From NCBI GenBank assembly GCA_002423485.1, contig DIWH01000081.1, forward strand, positions 11,612 through 75,611: DNA of 64,000 bases, in the 5' to 3' direction. Below the pieces are notes generated by a model. The model did no database searches and was not told where the DNA came from. It saw nothing but the letters and a program-made list of their open reading frames with translations. The translations under genes and the position numbers were made by a program. Source of the stretch: Candidatus Xenobium occultum (lineage in GTDB: Bacteria > Vulcanimicrobiota > Xenobia > Xenobiales > Xenobiaceae). Every line of letters begins with the position of its first letter. Within the stretch, counting starts at the first letter, position 1. This document shows, piece after piece, positions 16,808 through 23,651 of this stretch.

Positions 16808-17658
16808 CGGCCCGGCTCTCCAAAAACCTGGACCAGGTTCCGCAATCCCTCCAGGCTGCGCATGGTCGGCCGGACCACCAGATCCGGTTCCAGCTTCCGG
16901 ACCCGACCTTCCCGCACGGCCGTCAGCCGCTCCCAACCTGCCCGATGCGGAAGATCCGCCGGTTCCAGGGTGGTCAGCAGCAGGATTTCAGGATCCCGGC
17001 GGACCAGGTCCTCCAACGAGATCGTGGGGTAGGTCTCGGAGAGGTCTCCGTAGACGTTGTTCCCCCCCGAGCGTTCGATCATCTCGTGGACCAGGCTGGT
17101 GCTCCCTGCCGTCATGAGGGGCTCTCCCCAGATCTCCACGAAGACTCGTGGAGCGTGGGGCAGGCTGCGGGCGGCCCGTTCCACCTCCTGCAGCCCGGCC
17201 TGGAAGGCTGCCAGCGCCTCAGAGGCCTTTTCTTCGGCACCCAGGGCCCGACCTAGGACTGGAAGGTTGGCCTGGAGGTCCGCCAGGGTCCTGGTCTTCA
17301 AAGCCAGGACGGGCAGGCCCAGCCCCTCCAATCGGGCACGGATCTCTTGTCCCTGCAGGTTGTCGTCCAACAGGATCAGGTCCGGGTGGAGGGCCAGGAT
17401 CCGCTCGTAGTCCGGCTGCATCCCGCCCACCCGGGGCAGGCTCTCGACCTGGGGAGGATGGTGATCGTTGTCGGTCACCGCCACCACCCGGTCTCCAAGT
17501 CCCAAAGCGAAGAGGGTCTCGGTCAGGTTTGGGGCCAGGCAGAGCAGGCGCCGGGCCTGGTCGGACCGGGCCGGCGCCGAAACTGGTGGGCGCTCGGTGC
17601 AGCCGCCCACCAGGAGCAGGACCACCAGGGCGGCCAACAGGGAACTTCTCGGTCTCAC
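16804..17658 (-). CDS. ABC transporter substrate-binding lipoprotein, BtuF/FhuD (cobalamin/iron-siderophore) class
   Basis: Lipoprotein signal LLLVGGC. Class III SBP fold hallmarks. GTG start in GTGA overlap with upstream small gene. Confidence 0.8.
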   Translation of the reverse strand: MRPRSSLLAALVVLLLVGGCTERPPVSAPARSDQARRLLCLAPNLTETLFALGLGDRVVAVTDNDHHPPQVESLPRVGGMQPDYERILALHPDLILLDDNLQGQEIRARLEGLGLPVLALKTRTLADLQANLPVLGRALGAEEKASEALAAFQAGLQEVERAARSLPHAPRVFVEIWGEPLMTAGSTSLVHEMIERSGGNNVYGDLSETYPTISLEDLVRRDPEILLLTTLEPADLPHRAGWERLTAVREGRVRKLEPDLVVRPTMRSLEGLRNLVQVFGEPGR

Positions 17659-18050
17659 TCCTCGCGAGGCTCCGGGGTCTGGGCAGGGTTCTGCTCCGAG
17701 GAGGGAAAGGCCAGGGCCACCACCTCGTCCTGGGCTTCCGGCATCCGGCGGGTCTCCAACTCGACCTCTTCAGGGGCATAGGCCGAGACAACCCGGATCT
17801 GTTCCCCGTCGGGGGTCTGGAGGCACTCGTAGCGGGTGTCATCCTGAGGGTCGCGCAGGATGAAGCTGGCCCGGGGTTCCAGCCAGCGGACCAGTTGCCG
17901 GGCTTCCAGGAAACGCCCGTGGTCCACATGGTCGCGGTACTCGCGCAGGAGGCCTTCCAGGCGGGGGGCCAGGTCCGCAGACACCTCGCCCGCTTCCTGT
18001 TCGCGGCGATAATCCAGATATTCGTCGCACCAGTCGATCTCGATCTTCAA
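17655..18050 (-). CDS. Hypothetical small acidic protein (about 132 aa) leading the btuFCD-like operon
   Basis: TTG start 18050 preceded by GGAGG at 6-nt spacing. Acidic, no recognised domain. Its stop overlaps the SBP start. Confidence 0.5.
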   Translation of the reverse strand: MKIEIDWCDEYLDYRREQEAGEVSADLAPRLEGLLREYRDHVDHGRFLEARQLVRWLEPRASFILRDPQDDTRYECLQTPDGEQIRVVSAYAPEEVELETRRMPEAQDEVVALAFPSSEQNPAQTPEPREE

Positions 18051-18167
18051 GAAAGGCCTCCCCGGGGAGCAGAGCACCCCTGACGCAATTCCCTTCGTTC
18101 CCGGTGCTCCATTCCCTGGAAGCGATGGCAGGAGGCAGCGGCGAGGCCGCGAAAGTCCGGCCTTCCC

Positions 18168-19025
18168 GTGCCCAGGACCTCCACCCGGGCCAGCAAGAGG
18201 GCCTCCGCCCCCGGGCCCGTGTTGAAGTGGGCCGGCGGCAAGAGCCAGTTGCTGGTCCAGTACGACCGCTGGTTTCCCCGCCGCTTCGCTGCCTACTTCG
18301 AGCCTTTCGTGGGCGGCGCAGCCGTGTTCTTTCACCTGTTGCCCGCCACCACCCGGCATCGGGTCCGCCTGTCGGACCTCAACGGGGACCTGATCGAGGT
18401 CTATCGGACGCTGCAGGGCGACCTGGAGGGTTTGATCCACCGTCTGGCAGAGCACGCCGGGCAGCACTCGGAGGAGCACTTCTACCGGGTCCGCTCCTGG
18501 ACGCCCGAGGATTTGGAGCCGGTGGAGCGGGCCGCTCGGACCATCTACCTGAACAAGACCTGCTACAACGGACTGTATCGGGTCAACTCCTCGGGGCAGT
18601 TCAACGTCCCCTTCGGTCGCTACAAGAATCCCAGCATCCTGGCCGAACCTCGGCTGCGTGCGGCGGCGCGTGCCTTGGAGGGCGTGGAACTGGCAGTCGA
18701 GGGGTTCGAGTCGGTCCTGGAGCACGCCCGGAAGGGAGACCTGGTCTACTTCGACCCTCCCTATCAGCCGCTGAGTGCCACCTCCAGCTTCACCGCCTAC
18801 ACGCGCTGGAATTTCGGTGCGGCCGAGCAGGTCCGCCTGGCCGAGGTCTTTCGCGAGCTGGCCTCGCGCCAGGTCAAGGTCCTCCTGTCCAACTCGGACA
18901 GCCCTCTGATTCACGAACTCTACCAGGGCTACCCGACCCACCTCGTCCGGGCCAACCGCTTCATCAACTCCAAGGGCGATTCCCGGCAGGCCATCCACGA
19001 GGTGCTGGTCTGCAGCTTCCGGTGA
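18168..19025 (+). CDS. DNA adenine (N6) methyltransferase, Dam/D12 class
   Basis: LKWAGGKSQLL N-terminus, FxGxG (FEPFVGGAAVF) SAM motif, DPPY catalytic motif. Confidence 0.85.
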   Translation: MPRTSTRASKRASAPGPVLKWAGGKSQLLVQYDRWFPRRFAAYFEPFVGGAAVFFHLLPATTRHRVRLSDLNGDLIEVYRTLQGDLEGLIHRLAEHAGQHSEEHFYRVRSWTPEDLEPVERAARTIYLNKTCYNGLYRVNSSGQFNVPFGRYKNPSILAEPRLRAAARALEGVELAVEGFESVLEHARKGDLVYFDPPYQPLSATSSFTAYTRWNFGAAEQVRLAEVFRELASRQVKVLLSNSDSPLIHELYQGYPTHLVRANRFINSKGDSRQAIHEVLVCSFR

Positions 19026-20296
19026 ACCTGGCCGAGGCCTGGGAGCTTCTGCTGAGGGACCTGCCCGAGGGCAGGCCGATCCGCGTGCTGGCGGCCGAGA
19101 TCAAGGCCCGAACGGGTCTGGAACCGCGGCTGATGGCCAAGTTCGACCATCGTCACCAGGTCCCGGAGGCCCTGCGACGGCGCAATCTGTTTGTGCTGCC
19201 GATCCGCAACGGGGAGTATGCCCTTCTTCCGGGCGAGGGCTACCACACCCTGGAGCCTTGTCCTGCCCCTGGCGACTTCCCGTCTCGGGCCGAGTTCACC
19301 TTGCGAACCCTCGAGCAGGGGCTCTCGGAGTCGCAGTACCTGGACCTGGCCTACCACTCGGGTCTTCTGTCGCACTTCACCGGGGTGGCCACGCTGTTCC
19401 CCACCATCCGCGGTCGCAAGAGGGCTCCGCGTTTCAGCTTCCGGGTGGGCGGGGCCGACCTGGATGTCGAGGGAGTCCAGGTTGAGGTGGATGCCGGCTA
19501 CGAGGGGCCCCAGGAGGTGCTGATCCTGGAGGCCAAGATCGGCGACCCGGCGGACTTCCACCTGCGTCAACTCTACTACCCCTTCCGCTTCTGGAGCCAG
19601 TTGACCCCCAAGCGGGTCCGTCCGATCTTCTTCACCTTCTCGCCCCAGGACGGAGTGATCCGGCTTCGGGAGTATCAATTTGAACCACCCGATTGTTACC
19701 GCGCCCCGCGGCTGGTCCGCGCAGCCGCCTATCGGCTCCGCCCCCGTCGGGGACGTCTGCCGGTCTGGCGGTGCGCCCCAAGCCAGGTCCTGAGCGTCCC
19801 TCAGGCCGACGATCTGGAGAAGGTGGCCCGGCTCCCCTTCCTCGTCTTTCAGGGGCTGGACCGACCCGGCCGCGTGGCCGAGGGGTTGGGTTTCAGCCCC
19901 CGACAGGGAGGCTACTACACCGAGGCCTGCCAGATGCTGGGCCTGGTCGGGATCGTCCAGGGGCGTCTGCACCTGACCGCGGCCGGGCGGGACTACGTCG
20001 AGATGGAGGTGGAGCCTCGCCACGAGTTCCTGGCGCGCCTGGTCCTGGAGCTGCCGATCATGCGGCGGGCGCTGGTGGAGATGCTTCTGTCTCCCTCCCG
20101 CCGACTCGAGCACTCAGCTCTGGTGGACCTGGTGGTCCGTGAGTCGGGGCTGGCGGGCAGCACCGCCTCGCGCCGGGCGGGAACCCTGCGCAGGTGGTTC
20201 GCCTGGCTGGGGCGGGCCCTGGGTCTGGTCCGGGTCGGCAAGGGCTCCATCGAACTGGTGGCGCCCGCTCGGGTTGAGGAACTCCGTCTTTTCTGA
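19022..20296 (+). CDS. Putative restriction endonuclease partner of the Dam-like MTase (424 aa, candidate PD-(D/E)xK motif)
   Basis: GTG start overlaps MTase stop (GTGA). Candidate nuclease motif VDAGYEGPQEVLILEAKIG (D...E-x-K). No other recognisable domain. Confidence 0.45.
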   Translation: MNLAEAWELLLRDLPEGRPIRVLAAEIKARTGLEPRLMAKFDHRHQVPEALRRRNLFVLPIRNGEYALLPGEGYHTLEPCPAPGDFPSRAEFTLRTLEQGLSESQYLDLAYHSGLLSHFTGVATLFPTIRGRKRAPRFSFRVGGADLDVEGVQVEVDAGYEGPQEVLILEAKIGDPADFHLRQLYYPFRFWSQLTPKRVRPIFFTFSPQDGVIRLREYQFEPPDCYRAPRLVRAAAYRLRPRRGRLPVWRCAPSQVLSVPQADDLEKVARLPFLVFQGLDRPGRVAEGLGFSPRQGGYYTEACQMLGLVGIVQGRLHLTAAGRDYVEMEVEPRHEFLARLVLELPIMRRALVEMLLSPSRRLEHSALVDLVVRESGLAGSTASRRAGTLRRWFAWLGRALGLVRVGKGSIELVAPARVEELRLF

Positions 20297-20312
20297 AAGG
20301 CCGATTCGAAAA

Positions 20313-20350
20313 GCAGCAAGCCTGACCGCTTGCACGGCCAGGCTTGCTGC
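20313..20350. terminator. Bidirectional terminator hairpin between convergent genes
   Basis: 12-bp perfect stem gcagcaagcctg / caggcttgctgc with 14-nt loop. Confidence 0.55.
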
Positions 20351-20378
20351 GCGGGAAGGTCGGGGGGAACTCTTGGGA

Positions 20379-21830
20379 TCAGGAGCGCTGACGCACCTGG
20401 TCCAAAGCCTCCTGGGCGTCCACGAAGCCCTTGCCCTGGTCATTGGCGCTGAACCCCGGCATGGGGTCCGCGGTGTTTCGCAGGATCTCCTTGAGCGTCC
20501 GCGGGTCCAGGTCGTTGGCCTGTTCCAGGCCGGCGACGATGCCCGCCACCAGGGGGGCGGAAAACGAGGTCCCGGGGGCGGCCACCAGGCCATCTTCGGG
20601 GATGTAGACCGGGGGCAACCCCGACTTGACGGCCTTCTCGACCTCTTCCGGGCTGCGCCGGAGGATGTCCCGCGGCAGGCCCAGGCCCTTGATCAATTGG
20701 GGCTTGTCGGTCAGCAGGGCCTTGAGCTTCTGACCGCTCATGCTGCGCAGGGTCTGAACGGTCTTGCCCGTCTGCTCCATCTCCGAACCGGGCACGCTCC
20801 AAGAGACGATGAACTCGCCCGGAGCCAGGATGTCGGGCTTGGTCAGCCCGTCGTCGGTGGGTCCACGGGAGGAGAAGTCGCTGACCTTCTGGAGATCCAG
20901 GGCGGCGCCTACGGTCAGGGCCGAGGCGGAGTCCGCGGGAGAACCCAGGGTCCTGGCATCCGGGCCGCTGTTGCCCCCCGCCGCCACGACCGTGATCCCG
21001 AGTTTGGTGGCCAGTTCGACCGCCCGGTTGATGGGGTCTTCCCGGTCAGGTCGACCATCCGGACCGGCACCCAGGGACATGTTGATGACCTCGATGCCAT
21101 ACTTCTCCTTGTTCTGGATCGCCCACTGCAGGCCCCGGATGATGTCGGAGGGCCGGCCCTGGCCGTTCTCGTCCATGACCCGGACGGCCACGATCTTGGC
21201 ATCCGGGGCGGTGGCCAGCACGTCTCCCGCCACGTGGGTGCCGTGTCCCACCGGGTCGATGGGCCGCGGAGAACCGTCGACCACGTCCTGCCAGGCCAGC
21301 AGGTTGAACTGCGGGTGGTCGAAGCCCGAGTCCAGGACGGCCACCACCTGGCCCTTGCCGGTGATCCCCTGCTGGTGCAGGCTGTCCGCCTGGGTCAGGG
21401 CCACCGGGTCCACCAGGGGCATGGAATAGTCGCCAGAGTCCAGGTTCATCTGCACCTTGGGCAGGCCCGGCCACAGGTCACGCGGGCGGTTGTCGAAGAC
21501 CAGATAGCCTTCCTTCTCGAGCTTCTCGGCGGTCTTCTGGTCCACCCTGGCGGTGACGCCCACCGTGTCCAACTGCTCCTGGACTTCCACGCCCTTCTCG
21601 GCAAGCTGCTGATTCATCTTGCGAGGATCCACGCTCTGGGTCAGGCTTCCGTCGCCCGGTGCACGCATGATGATGACGTCCTGAGGGCCATCCAGGCTGG
21701 CTGGAACCGCCTTGAAGGGGCTCTCGGCCTCGCCACGCATCGCCGCGTTGATCCGGCTGAGCTGGGTGGGTGTGAAGTACTGGCTGCTGGAGCCGCCGAT
21801 CGGTGTGCTCATTGGGTCGCCTCCCGACAT
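20379..21830 (-). CDS. Subtilisin-like serine peptidase (S8 family)
   Basis: Asp/His/Ser triad context: VAVLDSGFD, HGTHVAG, GTSFSAPLVAG. No obvious N-terminal signal peptide. An alternative ATG at 21812 has a better RBS. Confidence 0.85.
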   Translation of the reverse strand: MSGGDPMSTPIGGSSSQYFTPTQLSRINAAMRGEAESPFKAVPASLDGPQDVIIMRAPGDGSLTQSVDPRKMNQQLAEKGVEVQEQLDTVGVTARVDQKTAEKLEKEGYLVFDNRPRDLWPGLPKVQMNLDSGDYSMPLVDPVALTQADSLHQQGITGKGQVVAVLDSGFDHPQFNLLAWQDVVDGSPRPIDPVGHGTHVAGDVLATAPDAKIVAVRVMDENGQGRPSDIIRGLQWAIQNKEKYGIEVINMSLGAGPDGRPDREDPINRAVELATKLGITVVAAGGNSGPDARTLGSPADSASALTVGAALDLQKVSDFSSRGPTDDGLTKPDILAPGEFIVSWSVPGSEMEQTGKTVQTLRSMSGQKLKALLTDKPQLIKGLGLPRDILRRSPEEVEKAVKSGLPPVYIPEDGLVAAPGTSFSAPLVAGIVAGLEQANDLDPRTLKEILRNTADPMPGFSANDQGKGFVDAQEALDQVRQRS

Positions 21831-21951: not shown

Positions 21952-23651
21952 TCAAGACGGGGACTCGCTCTGGGCGCTGCGCAGCAAGGCGCGCATTTCC
22001 AGGGCGCTGGCGCAGGCCAGCAGCAGGCGCCGGAGCTTGGGGTCCAGGAAGGTGCGGGCGAGGTCGGTCAGGATCTCGATCTGTTCGACCTCCTTGTCCT
22101 GGGGCGTGAGGACCACCACGACCGCGCGAACCTTTTCGGGGACTCCGGTTGACCTGAAGCCCTCCGGGCACAGGGCCAGGCCGACCAGCGGGGCCGGAAT
22201 CCCCGGAAGACGGCCGTGGGCCAGGCGGACGCCCGGAGCCAGATCGTCTCCGGTCAACCTTTCGCGCCGGCGGATCGCCTCCAGCAGGATTTCTGGAGGG
22301 GAACCAATGGCGGTGCACAGGCCGCCGACGACGGTTTCAACGGCCTGGACCGGGTCATTGTCGGAGTCCAGCACGAAGAAGCCGCGGTCGCGGAGGAAGC
22401 GGACGAAGCGGGCGGGCTTGCGGCGGGCCAGCATCCGCTCCATCATGGGCCCGCTCAGCATGGAGGTCACCAGGGCCATGACCACCAGGGCCACCAGCAT
22501 CCGCTCCATCATGGGCCCGCTCAGCATGGAGGTCACCAGGGCCATGACCACCAGGGCCACCAGCATCCGGTCATCGATCAGGCCAGCCTCGCGGGCCAGC
22601 AGGCCCAGGATGATCTCCATGGCTCCGCGGGCGTTCATCCCGAAGCCCAGGGCCCAGGCATCCCGGCCAGGATGGCGCCGCCCCCGCACCCCAGGATCTT
22701 GCCGACGCAGGCGATGGCCAGCACCACCAGGCACAGGGTCGGGTCGAAGGATTCGACGAAGTTCACCCGCAGGCCGATGGAGGCGAAGAAGAGCGGAGCA
22801 AGGAGCGCTGCGACGAAGTGGTGCAGGATCAGCCGGGTCCGCTCGGTGATGTGCGCCGAATCCCCCAGGGCCACCCCGACCAGGAAGGCTCCGAAGATGG
22901 CGTGGACCCCGATCCACTCGGCGAAGGCCCCGCACAGGAGGGCCAGGGAGACGCACAAGGCCAGAACGCCGGCGGGCCAGGCGGTGTGGGCCTGCACCCG
23001 GACGATGATCTGGTTGAGCGCAACCCGACCCACCGTCAGCATTCCCGCCGCGAAGGCCAGCGTGGCCATCACGGTGGTCCGGATGTCGAAGCTGCCCTCC
23101 TCCAGATGCCGCCCCGGGATCAGGCCCAGGACCAGGGCGAAGAGGAGCCAGCCGATGAAGTCGTTGACGATGGCCGCCGCCAGGATGATCATCCCCAGGT
23201 CGGTGCGGAAGAGGTGCAGGTCCATCAGGATCTTGGCGATCACCGGCAGGGCAGAGATGGACAAGGCGGTGGCCAGGAAGAGGGCATACAGGAAAGTGCC
23301 GGATTCAGGGGGCTTGCCCAGCAGGTCGGGGGCGGCGTAGACCACGGCGAAGCCCAGCGCGAAGGGGAAGACCATCCCGGCGGCGCTGACGACCGTGGCC
23401 ATCCGGCCCTGGCGCTTGATCCGGGACAGGTCGACCTCCAGGCCCGCCACCAGCAGGAAGAGGACCACCGCCACCTGGGTCATCGCCTGCAGGCCGAAGG
23501 CCGCCGGCCCGGTCTCCGGGAAGAGGCGGGCGGTGGCCTCGGGCCACAGGGTGCCCAGGATGGTGGGGCCCAGGAGGACCCCGGCCAGGATCTCCCCCAG
23601 GACGGCGGGCTGACGAAGGGCTGAGGCCAACTCGCCCAGGGCCCGGGCCAC
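21952..23651 (-). pseudogene. Cation:proton antiporter (CPA2/KefB-NhaP type) with C-terminal PTS-EIIA-like domain; frameshifted
   Basis: TM domain in one frame (22635..23651). GFGMNARGAMEII helix and EIIA-like domain continue in another frame (21952..22700). Frame switch near 22650-22670. TM1 is encoded upstream of the only start codon. Confidence 0.6.
22432..22563. repeat. Perfect 66-bp direct tandem duplication (2 copies) inside the antiporter gene
   Basis: catccgctccatcatgggcccgctcagcatggaggtcaccagggccatgaccaccagggccaccag occurs twice consecutively. It encodes duplicated MLVALVVMALVTSMLSGPMMER. Confidence 0.9.

Follow-up and report, generated by a model that had tools for sequence, protein, structure and literature searches.

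A translationally coupled Dam-family methyltransferase and PD-(D/E)xK protein as a probable type II restriction-modification system with a nuclease of a catalogued family

The analyzed window (the whole stretch of DNA, 64 kb) contains two plus-strand open reading frames (ORFs) that overlap by four nucleotides, the first (18168-19025) encoding 285 aa and the second (19022-20296) encoding 424 aa, both from GTG starts. The genes and their immediate surroundings comprise:

18051..18167, no strand assigned, intergenic region of ~117 nt separating the methyltransferase (MTase) gene from a small divergent ORF (17655-18050, minus strand)
18168..19025, plus strand, Dam-family N6-adenine DNA methyltransferase, 285 aa (Pfam, NCBIfam, PADLOC, solved relatives)
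19022..19025, plus strand, GTGA shared by the end of the MTase gene and the start of the nuclease gene (translational coupling)
19022..20296, plus strand, predicted type II restriction endonuclease (REase), 424 aa, three domains (PADLOC, Pfam, AF2)
20313..20350, no strand assigned, strong hairpin between the convergent nuclease and S8 protease (20379-21830, minus strand) genes

The MTase stop codon TGA (19023-19025) and the nuclease GTG (19022-19024) share the letters GTGA, confirming the overlap pointed out in a preliminary description of this DNA. An identical 4-nt overlap was found in three other loci (L001, L002 and L004), and the GTG start of the MTase is kept in relatives. The same description had placed a divergent promoter region upstream of the pair. 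The ~117-nt gap was confirmed and contains two blocks conserved in an alignment of five syntenic genomes, CATTCCCTGG (18110-18119) and TGGCAGGAGG (18126-18135), but a sigma-70-like site or consensus was not found anywhere in 17400-20700, and the promoter is at most putative. Across the gap, the divergent ORF encodes 131 aa without a Pfam match. Its stop overlaps the start of a periplasmic-binding-protein gene, which assigns it to an ABC-transporter operon, and a role as controller (C) protein was rejected. Downstream of the pair, the hairpin consists of two 16-nt arms (20313-20328 and 20335-20350) with 94% complementarity and folds at -36.4 kcal/mol (z = -3.3; an equally good fold in 0 of 200 shuffles). 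It is as strong as had been claimed, but it was also said to terminate in both directions; with a T-tract confined to the minus strand, it has the classical form of an intrinsic terminator for the S8 protease gene and that of a bare hairpin for the two-gene pair.

Assignment of the upstream gene product to the D12 class of methyltransferases was borne out by Pfam (PF02086, E = 8.8e-60; 203 bits against a cut-off of 22), by the Dam-family model TIGR00571 (283.3 bits, cut-off 114.85) and by a DPPY motif at aa 196-199. Among the PADLOC profiles it matched MTase_II (PDLC03294, E = 9.8e-94), the oMTase profiles (E = 2e-86) and, weakly, PD-Lambda-5_B (E = 1.6e-14). The closest solved relative was M.DpnII-1 (DpnM; 2dpm, E = 1.7e-63), and E. 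coli Dam ranked second (2g1p, E = 1.8e-45). Because it reached 188.2 bits on the enterobacterial Dam equivalog model NF008152, below the cut-off of 441, the enzyme is, judging by its sequence, a member of the Dam family and not a Dam orthologue. The following elements were located within it:

18222..18242, plus strand, LKWAGGK motif, in which K20 aligns with E. coli Dam K9 (2g1p alignment)
18306..18320, plus strand, AdoMet-binding motif I, FVGGA, aa 47-51 (alignment)
18564..18623, plus strand, DNA-recognition beta-hairpin YNGLYRVNSSGQFNVPFGRY, aa 133-152 (alignment to Dam)
18753..18764, plus strand, catalytic motif IV, DPPY, aa 196-199 (sequence)

The counterpart of the FVGGA segment is FVGAG in E. 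coli Dam and FVGGG in DpnM; motif I, reported earlier as FxGxG, is present but has Ala in place of the last Gly. In E. coli Dam, GATC is read by K9, Y119, N120, L122, R124, P134 and Y138, with K9 recognizing the first base pair (PMC4417163). Every one of these residues is conserved in the MTase, as K20 in the LKWAGGK motif and as Y133, N134, L136, R138, P148 and Y152 in the beta-hairpin, where R151 likewise corresponds to Dam R137. Since the contact residues of Dam are conserved, the target of the MTase is predicted to be GATC, carrying N6-methyladenine (m6A). Of 80 MTases linked to the nuclease family, 78 showed the same contact pattern, even at ~35% overall identity. GATC itself occurred in the window 466 times against an expectation of 471 (ratio 0.99) and is thus not avoided, a result that is neutral for a protected host and uninformative about the system.

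For the 424-aa protein, the preliminary description had recognized no family. This view was superseded by three Pfam domains above the gathering score (PF22515, DUF6996, 52.3 bits; PF22518, DUF6997, 143 bits; PF23871, DUF7226, 50.3 bits; cut-off 27 each) and by a PADLOC match to REase_II (PDLC03513), which was the only PADLOC match of this protein and spanned profile positions 42-420 of 426 (E = 5.5e-32). Homologs scored 157-228 bits on the same profile. Relatives are ~420-440 aa long, carry the three Pfam domains in identical order and are named “type II restriction enzyme” in RefSeq and UniRef, with some mis-annotated as “translation elongation factor”. No NCBIfam model matched the nuclease or five relatives bearing the restriction enzyme name, which indicates that the name in RefSeq does not stem from an HMM; the papers on PADLOC refer to REBASE in general terms and do not state the seed of PDLC03513. 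In the Pfam scan, the nuclease matched neither the DpnII family nor any other named REase family (E ≤ 1), and it had no match to Cas4, PDDEXK, DpnI or MutH. Its domains and predicted active site are:

19037..19222, plus strand, N-terminal domain DUF6996, aa 6-67 (PF22515, E = 5.8e-14)
19307..19732, plus strand, central PD-(D/E)xK nuclease domain DUF6997, aa 96-237 (PF22518, E = 1.4e-41)
19475..19537, plus strand, predicted active site VQVEVD157AGYE ... ILE170AK172 (two adjacent strands, invariant residues)
19556..19594, plus strand, helix FHLRQLYYPFRFW with invariant R182 and Q183 (conservation and model)
19871..20209, plus strand, C-terminal helical, winged-helix-like domain DUF7226 / AAA_assoc_C, aa 284-396 (PF23871, E = 3e-13; PF09821, E = 1.8e-7)

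Searches against solved structures by sequence returned only noise for the nuclease alone and 0 matches for a profile of its nuclease domain. Structure prediction, put forward earlier as a check for a nuclease fold, did support one: AF2 modeling combined with Foldseek pointed to a PD-(D/E)xK fold of the central domain. The full-length model (pLDDT 89.8, pTM 0.66) returned nothing at E ≤ 0.001 and matched the DtxR, MntR and IclR winged helix-turn-helix (wHTH) regulators with a probability of ~0.9; a domain-only model (pLDDT 88.9, pTM 0.83) was needed to sharpen the PD-(D/E)xK signal. With this model, all six matches in the PDB with a probability of at least 0.99 were PD-(D/E)xK nucleases, as were most of the top matches, which included ACE1/Cas4 (9iab, E = 3.6e-4), Cas4 (4ic1), McrC, RecU, AddAB, HincII and Hjc. 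Because the TM-scores were low (0.30-0.39), only the core fold is common to the modeled domain and any solved structure.

Two adjacent strands of the model (153-161 and 165-173) carry D157, E170 and K172 in the spacing D157-x12-E170-x-K172, within the segments VQVEVDAGYE (aa 152-161) and ILEAK (aa 168-172). The PD-(D/E)xK signature proposed for this protein is therefore present, although the gap between EVDAGY and ILEAK is 7 residues and not 11. D157, E170 and K172 were invariant in 53 homologs, and E103, D157, E170, K172, R182 and Q183 in 88 loci, which makes the motif far more than a chance match. The helix FHLRQLYYPFRFW is similar to the one with a Q..Y motif that comes after the ExK strand in nucleases of the RecB/Cas4 type. 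Together, model and conservation support a PD-(D/E)xK fold with an intact, conserved active site, from which cleavage activity is predicted. Outside this domain, an EPRLMAKFD motif in DUF6996 (aa 34-42; 19121-19147) is almost invariant, and R294, Q295, Y298, Y299, R384 and R385 are invariant in the C-terminal domain, which, according to the model, is likely a DNA-binding module. The nuclease gene as a whole has a dN/dS of 0.14-0.21 against five syntenic relatives.

Of 185,579 species genomes, 490 encoded relatives of the nuclease, scattered over bacterial and archaeal phyla, and the family comprised 2,463 clusters (50% identity) at E ≤ 1e-10; together with the existing database entries, these counts contradict the suggestion that a new or rare REase family had been encountered. 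Twenty plasmids, nine of them conjugative, also encoded relatives, and the family rides on conjugative and small Firmicutes plasmids beside recombinase genes. A Dam-family MTase adjoined the nuclease in 72 of 80 genome loci and a beta-class N6_N4 MTase took its place in four (L034, L036, L051 and L080). Two further loci were cut at contig ends, leaving 78 informative ones, and the two of these that had no adjacent MTase were both thaumarchaeal. In all, 76 of the 78 informative loci in genomes, and each of the four plasmids that were inspected, had the two genes side by side. Gene order varied with linkage kept, the MTase lying downstream in one locus (L084) and divergently on a plasmid of M. 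sciuri, and MTase-nuclease fusions also occurred (P0030, P0038, P0042, P0123 and P0160). An enzyme that requires site protection predicts that the class of MTase can be swapped while the nuclease partner is retained, as was seen.

In the window, the neighbours of the pair are housekeeping-type genes and GC content is flat at ~0.67 without anomaly. Both genes are intact and syntenic within the lineage, evolve under purifying selection (dN/dS 0.14-0.35) and have been inherited vertically across six related genomes; no flanking repeats were detected at the pair beyond short matches at chance level. Recent insertion of a mobile island was rejected on the basis of the flat GC, the lack of flanking repeats and the conserved synteny. 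Housekeeping context, normal GC and vertical inheritance are less typical of selfish restriction-modification (R-M) modules.

The two genes probably form a type II R-M system, as originally proposed for an MTase with a PD-(D/E)xK nuclease partner, because the fold, the invariant catalytic residues, the linkage to two MTase classes, the fusions and the plasmid carriage all point in this direction. In such a system, the Dam-family MTase would add a methyl group to N6 of the adenine of GATC in host DNA, and the GTGA overlap would couple translation such that the nuclease is made only together with the MTase. The nuclease would act as a Mg2+-dependent PD-(D/E)xK endonuclease with D157, E170 and K172 as catalytic residues and E103 and Q183 nearby, and would cut DNA with unmethylated copies of the same site, for example that of incoming phages or plasmids. 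Its N-terminal domain and winged-helix-like C-terminal domain would flank the catalytic core, the latter probably adding DNA binding. This scheme builds on the observed family assignments, the fold, the conserved residues, the gene linkage and fusions, the carriage on plasmids and the purifying selection, whereas the GATC target, the protection of methylated sites from cutting, the chemistry of cleavage and the roles of the flanking domains are inferred.

Unlikely, and still the most serious competitor, is an R-M system in which the nuclease differs in target or mode, either by recognizing a longer site that contains GATC (e.g., a 6-mer) or by acting in a type IIS/IIE-like manner, where the C-terminal domain would recognize DNA and the PD-(D/E)xK domain would cut at a distance or after binding of two sites. 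At 424 aa and three domains, the nuclease far exceeds one-domain type IIP enzymes in size, and its pTM of 0.66 against a pLDDT of 89.8 suggests loosely coupled domains. The C-terminal domain moreover resembles wHTH DNA binders and has invariant Arg, Gln and Tyr residues, and the conserved Dam contacts speak for the specificity of the MTase and not for that of the nuclease. Against this, nearly all loci make do with one MTase, as fits a palindromic target that has an adenine on both strands, and the data contain no pointer to a longer site.

A role outside defence is very unlikely. Here, a housekeeping Dam would work with a MutH-like nuclease that reads the methylation state and, at hemimethylated GATC, nicks the strand without the methyl group during mismatch repair or replication control, and the housekeeping-type neighbours, the unremarkable GC content, the vertical inheritance in six related genomes and the purifying selection would all suit such a function. 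MutH is a PD-(D/E)xK enzyme tied to Dam, and the locus likewise combines a Dam-family GATC methylase, with every contact residue kept, and a PD-(D/E)xK enzyme. In contrast to E. coli Dam and MutH, however, the genes described here are adjacent and coupled, the module is mobile and the nuclease is unrelated to MutH: alignment of its nuclease domain to E. coli MutH with hhalign gave a probability of 0.2%, which, with the lack of a Pfam match, led us to reject membership in the MutH / Sau3AI family. Plasmid carriage near recombinases, patchy spread, fusions and pairing with unrelated MTase classes are instead hallmarks of R-M systems.

Another MTase-linked defence, allowed for in the preliminary description, is more improbable still. 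The nuclease could in this case be modification-dependent (type IIM/IV-like), or the pair could belong to a PD-lambda-5-like or BREX-like system. The MTase does match PD-Lambda-5_B, but the MTase_II profile is better by ~80 orders of magnitude, and the sole PADLOC match of the nuclease, REase_II, lends no support to this alternative. DpnI is a methyl-directed GmATC enzyme composed of a PD-(D/E)xK domain and a winged-helix domain, and the nuclease, with its PD-(D/E)xK and C-terminal winged-helix-like domains, follows a similar logic. It has no Pfam DpnI match, however, and a nuclease that cut Gm6ATC would be suicidal when coupled to a GATC methylase, as it is in 72 of 80 loci; the obligate linkage to a GATC methylase implies a methylation dependence opposite to that of DpnI. 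Equally hard to credit is a partner that no longer cuts DNA and has become a DNA-binding protein or regulator of what is in effect an orphan methylase, since the predicted catalytic residues are all intact here and invariant across the family and dN/dS is low (0.14-0.21) over the whole nuclease gene, even though orphan Dam-family MTases are common and the oMTase profiles match this one.

As a type II R-M system, the pair can be compared with several known ones. Catalogued members of the DUF6996-DUF6997-DUF7226 family include WP_103851908.1 of Lactiplantibacillus plantarum, WP_225990809.1 on the Enterococcus faecium plasmid pVB3378_p2 and WP_058474340.1 of Legionella quateirensis. They share with the nuclease its domains, length, residues E103, D157, E170, K172, R182 and Q183, and an adjacent adenine MTase, while identity to the plasmid-borne and Legionella members is 26-31%. 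The present gene also differs from them in lying on a chromosome, where it has been passed on vertically within an uncultured lineage of high GC content. GATC systems of the DpnII / MboI / LlaDCHI type are alike in their predicted protection by GATC m6A, and DpnM is the nearest solved relative of the MTase. DpnII uses both MTase classes, and some members of the nuclease family also pair with a beta-class N6_N4 MTase. Compared with DpnII-type enzymes, however, the nuclease is ~1.5 times larger, has three domains and lacks a Pfam DpnII match, and only one MTase gene is present. The best matches of the central domain, to Cas4 / ACE1 / RecB-like nucleases (9iab, 9iac and 4ic1; E = 3.6e-4 to 5e-3, probability 0.98-1.00), share D...ExK followed by a helix with a conserved Gln. 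With TM-scores of 0.3-0.38, 14-18% identity, no sequence-level match and different flanking domains and genomic context, this relation is one of fold superfamily and not of family.

No biochemical characterization of any member of the nuclease family was found, its DUF names and accessions being absent from the open-access literature, and the literature on the GATC methylome of L. plantarum held nothing on point. A type II GATC m6A motif without an assigned gene has been described in L. brevis (PMC6533708), for which no link to the nuclease family was found.

On the type II R-M reading, the locus is an ordinary two-gene system whose nuclease comes from a widespread, already database-listed family. 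For the window itself this carries little weight, as it merely adds another system of type II R-M to those known, here from an uncultured bacterium of high GC content that probably belongs to the UBP9 / Vulcanimicrobiota lineage. The family matters more widely: an REase family found in ~490 species genomes and 2,463 clusters, and on clinically relevant Firmicutes plasmids, is still represented by three DUFs in Pfam and has neither a solved structure nor a detectable solved relative. Its near-exclusive pairing with GATC-type methylases yields a testable prediction of specificity. Characterizing one member, such as the copy of L. plantarum or that on the E. faecium plasmid, would let the DUFs be renamed and could explain unassigned GATC methylomes and transformation barriers. 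More tentatively, and with somewhat more doubt than confidence, DUF6996-DUF6997-DUF7226 proteins may constitute a third independent lineage of Dam-sensitive, GATC-directed REases in addition to DpnII/MboI and the Sau3AI/MutH group. Cleavage would then fall to a Cas4/RecB-like domain directed by separate DNA-reading domains at the N and C termini, and solitary copies would have been taken up as cargo by further mobile elements, for instance at a casposon-like locus of Thaumarchaeota. If this is true, a structure or biochemistry of one member would define a new REase architecture without a solved relative.

Both genes of the pair, the MTase and the 424-aa partner, were found in the window sequence where the preliminary description had placed them, together with the GTGA in which the MTase stop overlaps the GTG start of the partner. 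In related genomes, the GTG start of the MTase and the 4-nt overlap both recur. The pair and its immediate surroundings in the window are laid out as follows.

Upstream of the pair, across a gap of ~117 nt: divergent 131-aa ORF, its stop overlapping the start of a periplasmic-binding-protein gene
18168-19025, plus strand: MTase ORF, 285 aa, co-directional with the partner
19022-20296, plus strand: partner ORF, 424 aa, GTG start
20313-20350: hairpin with 16-nt arms, 94% complementary
20379-21830, minus strand: S8 protease gene (PF00082), convergent with the pair

The hairpin, proposed earlier as a bidirectional terminator, is strong (folding energy -36.4 kcal/mol, z-score -3.3), but a T-tract is present on the minus strand only, making it a classical terminator for the S8 protease gene and a bare hairpin for the pair. 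The periplasmic-binding-protein gene that the divergent 131-aa ORF overlaps is part of an ABC-transporter operon. In the proposed divergent promoter region, a search for a sigma-70-like promoter upstream of the pair found none, although two short blocks are conserved there. These blocks (CATTCCCTGG and TGGCAGGAGG, window 18110-18135) are kept in five genomes while the intergenic surroundings diverge, and may represent a non-sigma-70 promoter or operator.

The MTase is clearly a Dam-family enzyme, with matches to PF02086 (E 8.8e-60), TIGR00571 (283 bits; cut-off 115) and PADLOC MTase_II (E 9.8e-94), although it misses the enterobacterial Dam equivalog cut-off (188 vs 441 bits). Of the D12-class motifs listed previously, the family assignment holds and the strict FxGxG does not, as motif I reads FVGGA. 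Its nearest solved relative is DpnM (2dpm, E 1.7e-63), the closely related methylase that modifies GATC in the DpnII restriction system, and E. coli Dam comes next (E 1.8e-45). The residues with which E. coli Dam reads GATC (K9, Y119, N120, L122, R124, P134, R137 and Y138; PMC4417163) are all kept in an alignment with the MTase (K20, Y133, N134, L136, R138, P148, R151 and Y152), and GATC is therefore its likely target.

The partner had been described as lacking a recognisable family, which proved incorrect: three Pfam domains scored above their gathering thresholds.

Partner aa 6-67: DUF6996
Partner aa 96-237: DUF6997
Partner aa 284-396: DUF7226, overlapping AAA_assoc_C

It also matched nearly the whole PADLOC profile REase_II PDLC03513 (E 5.5e-32), which gives 157-228 bits for homologs of L. 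plantarum, Legionella and a thaumarchaeon. Many family members are presently named "type II restriction enzyme" in RefSeq and UniRef; none of the NCBIfam models searched underlies the RefSeq name, and the seed of PDLC03513 was not traceable in the PADLOC papers. We found no paper on the DUF6996-DUF6997-DUF7226 family in the open-access literature, and neither biochemical work on a member nor an experimental structure of one. In older records, members are called "hypothetical protein" or, erroneously, "translation elongation factor". The latter is a propagating mis-annotation, carried in GenBank, RefSeq or UniProt by locus L087 (3965-5272) and relatives (Mammaliicoccus, Staphylococcus and Macrococcoides plasmids; Stanieria K9Y1S7). 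It probably arose from the likeness of the C-terminal winged-helix region to SelB, a fragment of which was among the Foldseek matches of the partner model.

An AlphaFold2 model of the full-length partner, built from 53 homologs, was confident, with a pLDDT of 89.8 and a pTM of 0.66, the latter consistent with three loosely packed domains, while aa 88-245 modeled alone gave 88.9 and 0.83. Foldseek searches of aa 88-245 against the PDB returned mostly PD-(D/E)xK nucleases as best matches, including the Argonaute-associated Cas4-family protein ACE1 (9iab, E 3.6e-4, probability 1.00), Cas4 SSO0001, McrC, a putative restriction endonuclease domain protein, RecU, the AddAB nuclease, SPARDA nucleases, HincII and Hjc. 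TM-scores were low (0.30-0.39) and a sequence-profile search of the PDB with the nuclease domain gave zero matches, so that the core fold is shared but none of the solved structures is closely related. In the model, strand 153-161 carries D157 and the next strand, 165-173, carries E170 and K172 (D157-x12-E170-x-K172), a predicted placement that is the canonical PD-(D/E)xK arrangement. E103, D157, E170, K172, R182 and Q183 are invariant in the 53 aligned homologs and in 88/88 loci examined. The structure prediction proposed as a check thus yielded a nuclease fold, and the signature noted before is upheld by fold and invariant residues, except that the quoted strings (EVDAGY and ILEAK) are separated by seven residues, not eleven. 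The N-terminal domain contains a nearly invariant EPRLMAKFD motif. In the full-length model, the C-terminal part looks like the winged-helix domains with which the DtxR, MntR and IclR regulators bind DNA; it has invariant Arg, Gln and Tyr residues and plausibly also binds DNA.

The family, suspected earlier to be new or rare, is neither: it occurs in 490 of 185,579 species-representative genomes across many bacterial phyla and several archaeal groups, in 2,463 clusters at 50% identity (E <= 1e-10), and on 20 plasmids, mostly of Firmicutes and nine of them conjugative. Among the best 80 genome loci, 72 have an adjacent Dam-family MTase, which in nearly all cases immediately precedes the nuclease gene on the same strand; in L084 it lies downstream, and in L028 it seems to be truncated. 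A beta-class N6_N4 MTase (PF01555) takes its place in four (L034, L036, L051, L080), two end at a contig boundary and are uninformative (L023, L058), and two are MTase-less (L024, L025). GATC-reading residues are retained in 78/80 linked Dam-family MTases, even at ~35% overall identity. A methylase also adjoins 3/3 homologs found by exact protein sequence (a set of four loci, two being near-identical copies of one context) and 4/4 plasmid regions inspected, divergently in one, and several proteins combine a Dam-family MTase and all three partner domains in one chain. Near-obligate linkage, a gene order that is free to vary, substitution of an unrelated MTase class with the partner retained, and fusions together form the classical mark of a restriction enzyme paired with the methylase that protects against it.

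Several individual loci differ in context. The solitary homolog of a Thaumarchaeota MAG (L024:2996-7367, JAGWFT010000001.1) retains its catalytic residues without an adjacent methylase and, flanked by genes for a protein-primed family-B DNA polymerase (PF03175) and Cas1 (PF01867), appears to be carried as cargo by a casposon-type element. A second (L025:3633-6263, Thaumarchaeota MAG JAGWFW010000007.1) immediately follows the gene for a DndB-like (DGQHR) protein. In a Candidatus Saccharimonas MAG (L034:1728-6579), a beta-class N6_N4 MTase, the nuclease homolog, a C5 cytosine MTase and a GHKL-ATPase (HATPase_c_3) form a compact defence cluster on one strand. In a Nitrososphaerales MAG (L028:4116-4673), the upstream Dam-family MTase aligns over its N-terminal part only and is followed by a long gap, and may be a disrupted methylase beside an intact nuclease gene. 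Thermus phage phiLo gave the sole match to a phage record, a hypothetical protein (MH673673.1:16072-16789) whose similarity is confined to the N-terminal and nuclease domains (aa 23-242, 30% identity, E 2e-6).

The nearest genomes are MAGs labelled UBP9_UBA1432 and "Burkholderiales bacterium", with Vulcanimicrobiota further out. Five related genomes (six loci) carry the pair in the same place, between rib genes with an iron/cobalamin-type ABC transporter operon and the S8 protease gene. Flat GC content, intact genes, a dN/dS of 0.14-0.35 for the two genes and a search for flanking repeats that found none rule out recent insertion and indicate an old module that is maintained here. The window shows no depletion of GATC (466 observed vs 471 expected), as expected of a protected host and otherwise uninformative. 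CAGCTG, the PvuII site, is absent from window 1-64000 (14.2 expected under a 5-mer Markov model), a hint that the lineage has, or once had, a restriction system specific for CAGCTG; CTAG (4 vs 42.5) and GTAC (46 vs 83) were also scarce. A 66-nt unit is perfectly duplicated in tandem at 22428-22569 (2.2 copies, 100% match). The duplication adds an in-frame 22-aa repeat (MLVALVVMALVTSMLSGPMMER) to a minus-strand cation/H+ antiporter-like ORF, and is either very recent or an assembly artefact.

Predicted fold, invariant residues, linkage and fusions best support the type II R-M reading put forward initially, and we consider it quite probable that the pair is such a system: the Dam-type MTase would place m6A on GATC and protect host DNA, and the translationally coupled PD-(D/E)xK partner would cut unmethylated sites. 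The main uncertainty within this model is the site and mode of the nuclease (plain type IIP, a longer site, or IIS/IIE-like use of the extra domains), which the sequence alone does not reveal. Against a MutH-like repair role speak the partner's lack of similarity to MutH, the mobility of the module and its patchy distribution, which includes plasmids. A methyl-dependent enzyme would be suicidal beside its own methylase, and an effector of another MTase-linked defence, the alternative raised at first, is countered by REase_II being the partner's sole defence-profile match. Predicted catalytic residues that are intact and invariant, together with purifying selection, contradict a loss of activity. 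The closest functional likeness of this R-M pair is to the DpnII/MboI GATC systems, with a partner outside the DpnII, MutH/Sau3AI and DpnI families. Plasmid-borne and Legionella members of the family share 26-31% identity with the window copy, which is a divergent new member of the already catalogued "type II restriction enzyme" family. What is mildly interesting is that the family is catalogued ahead of any biochemistry or structure we could find, and that its public records are still partly mis-annotated.
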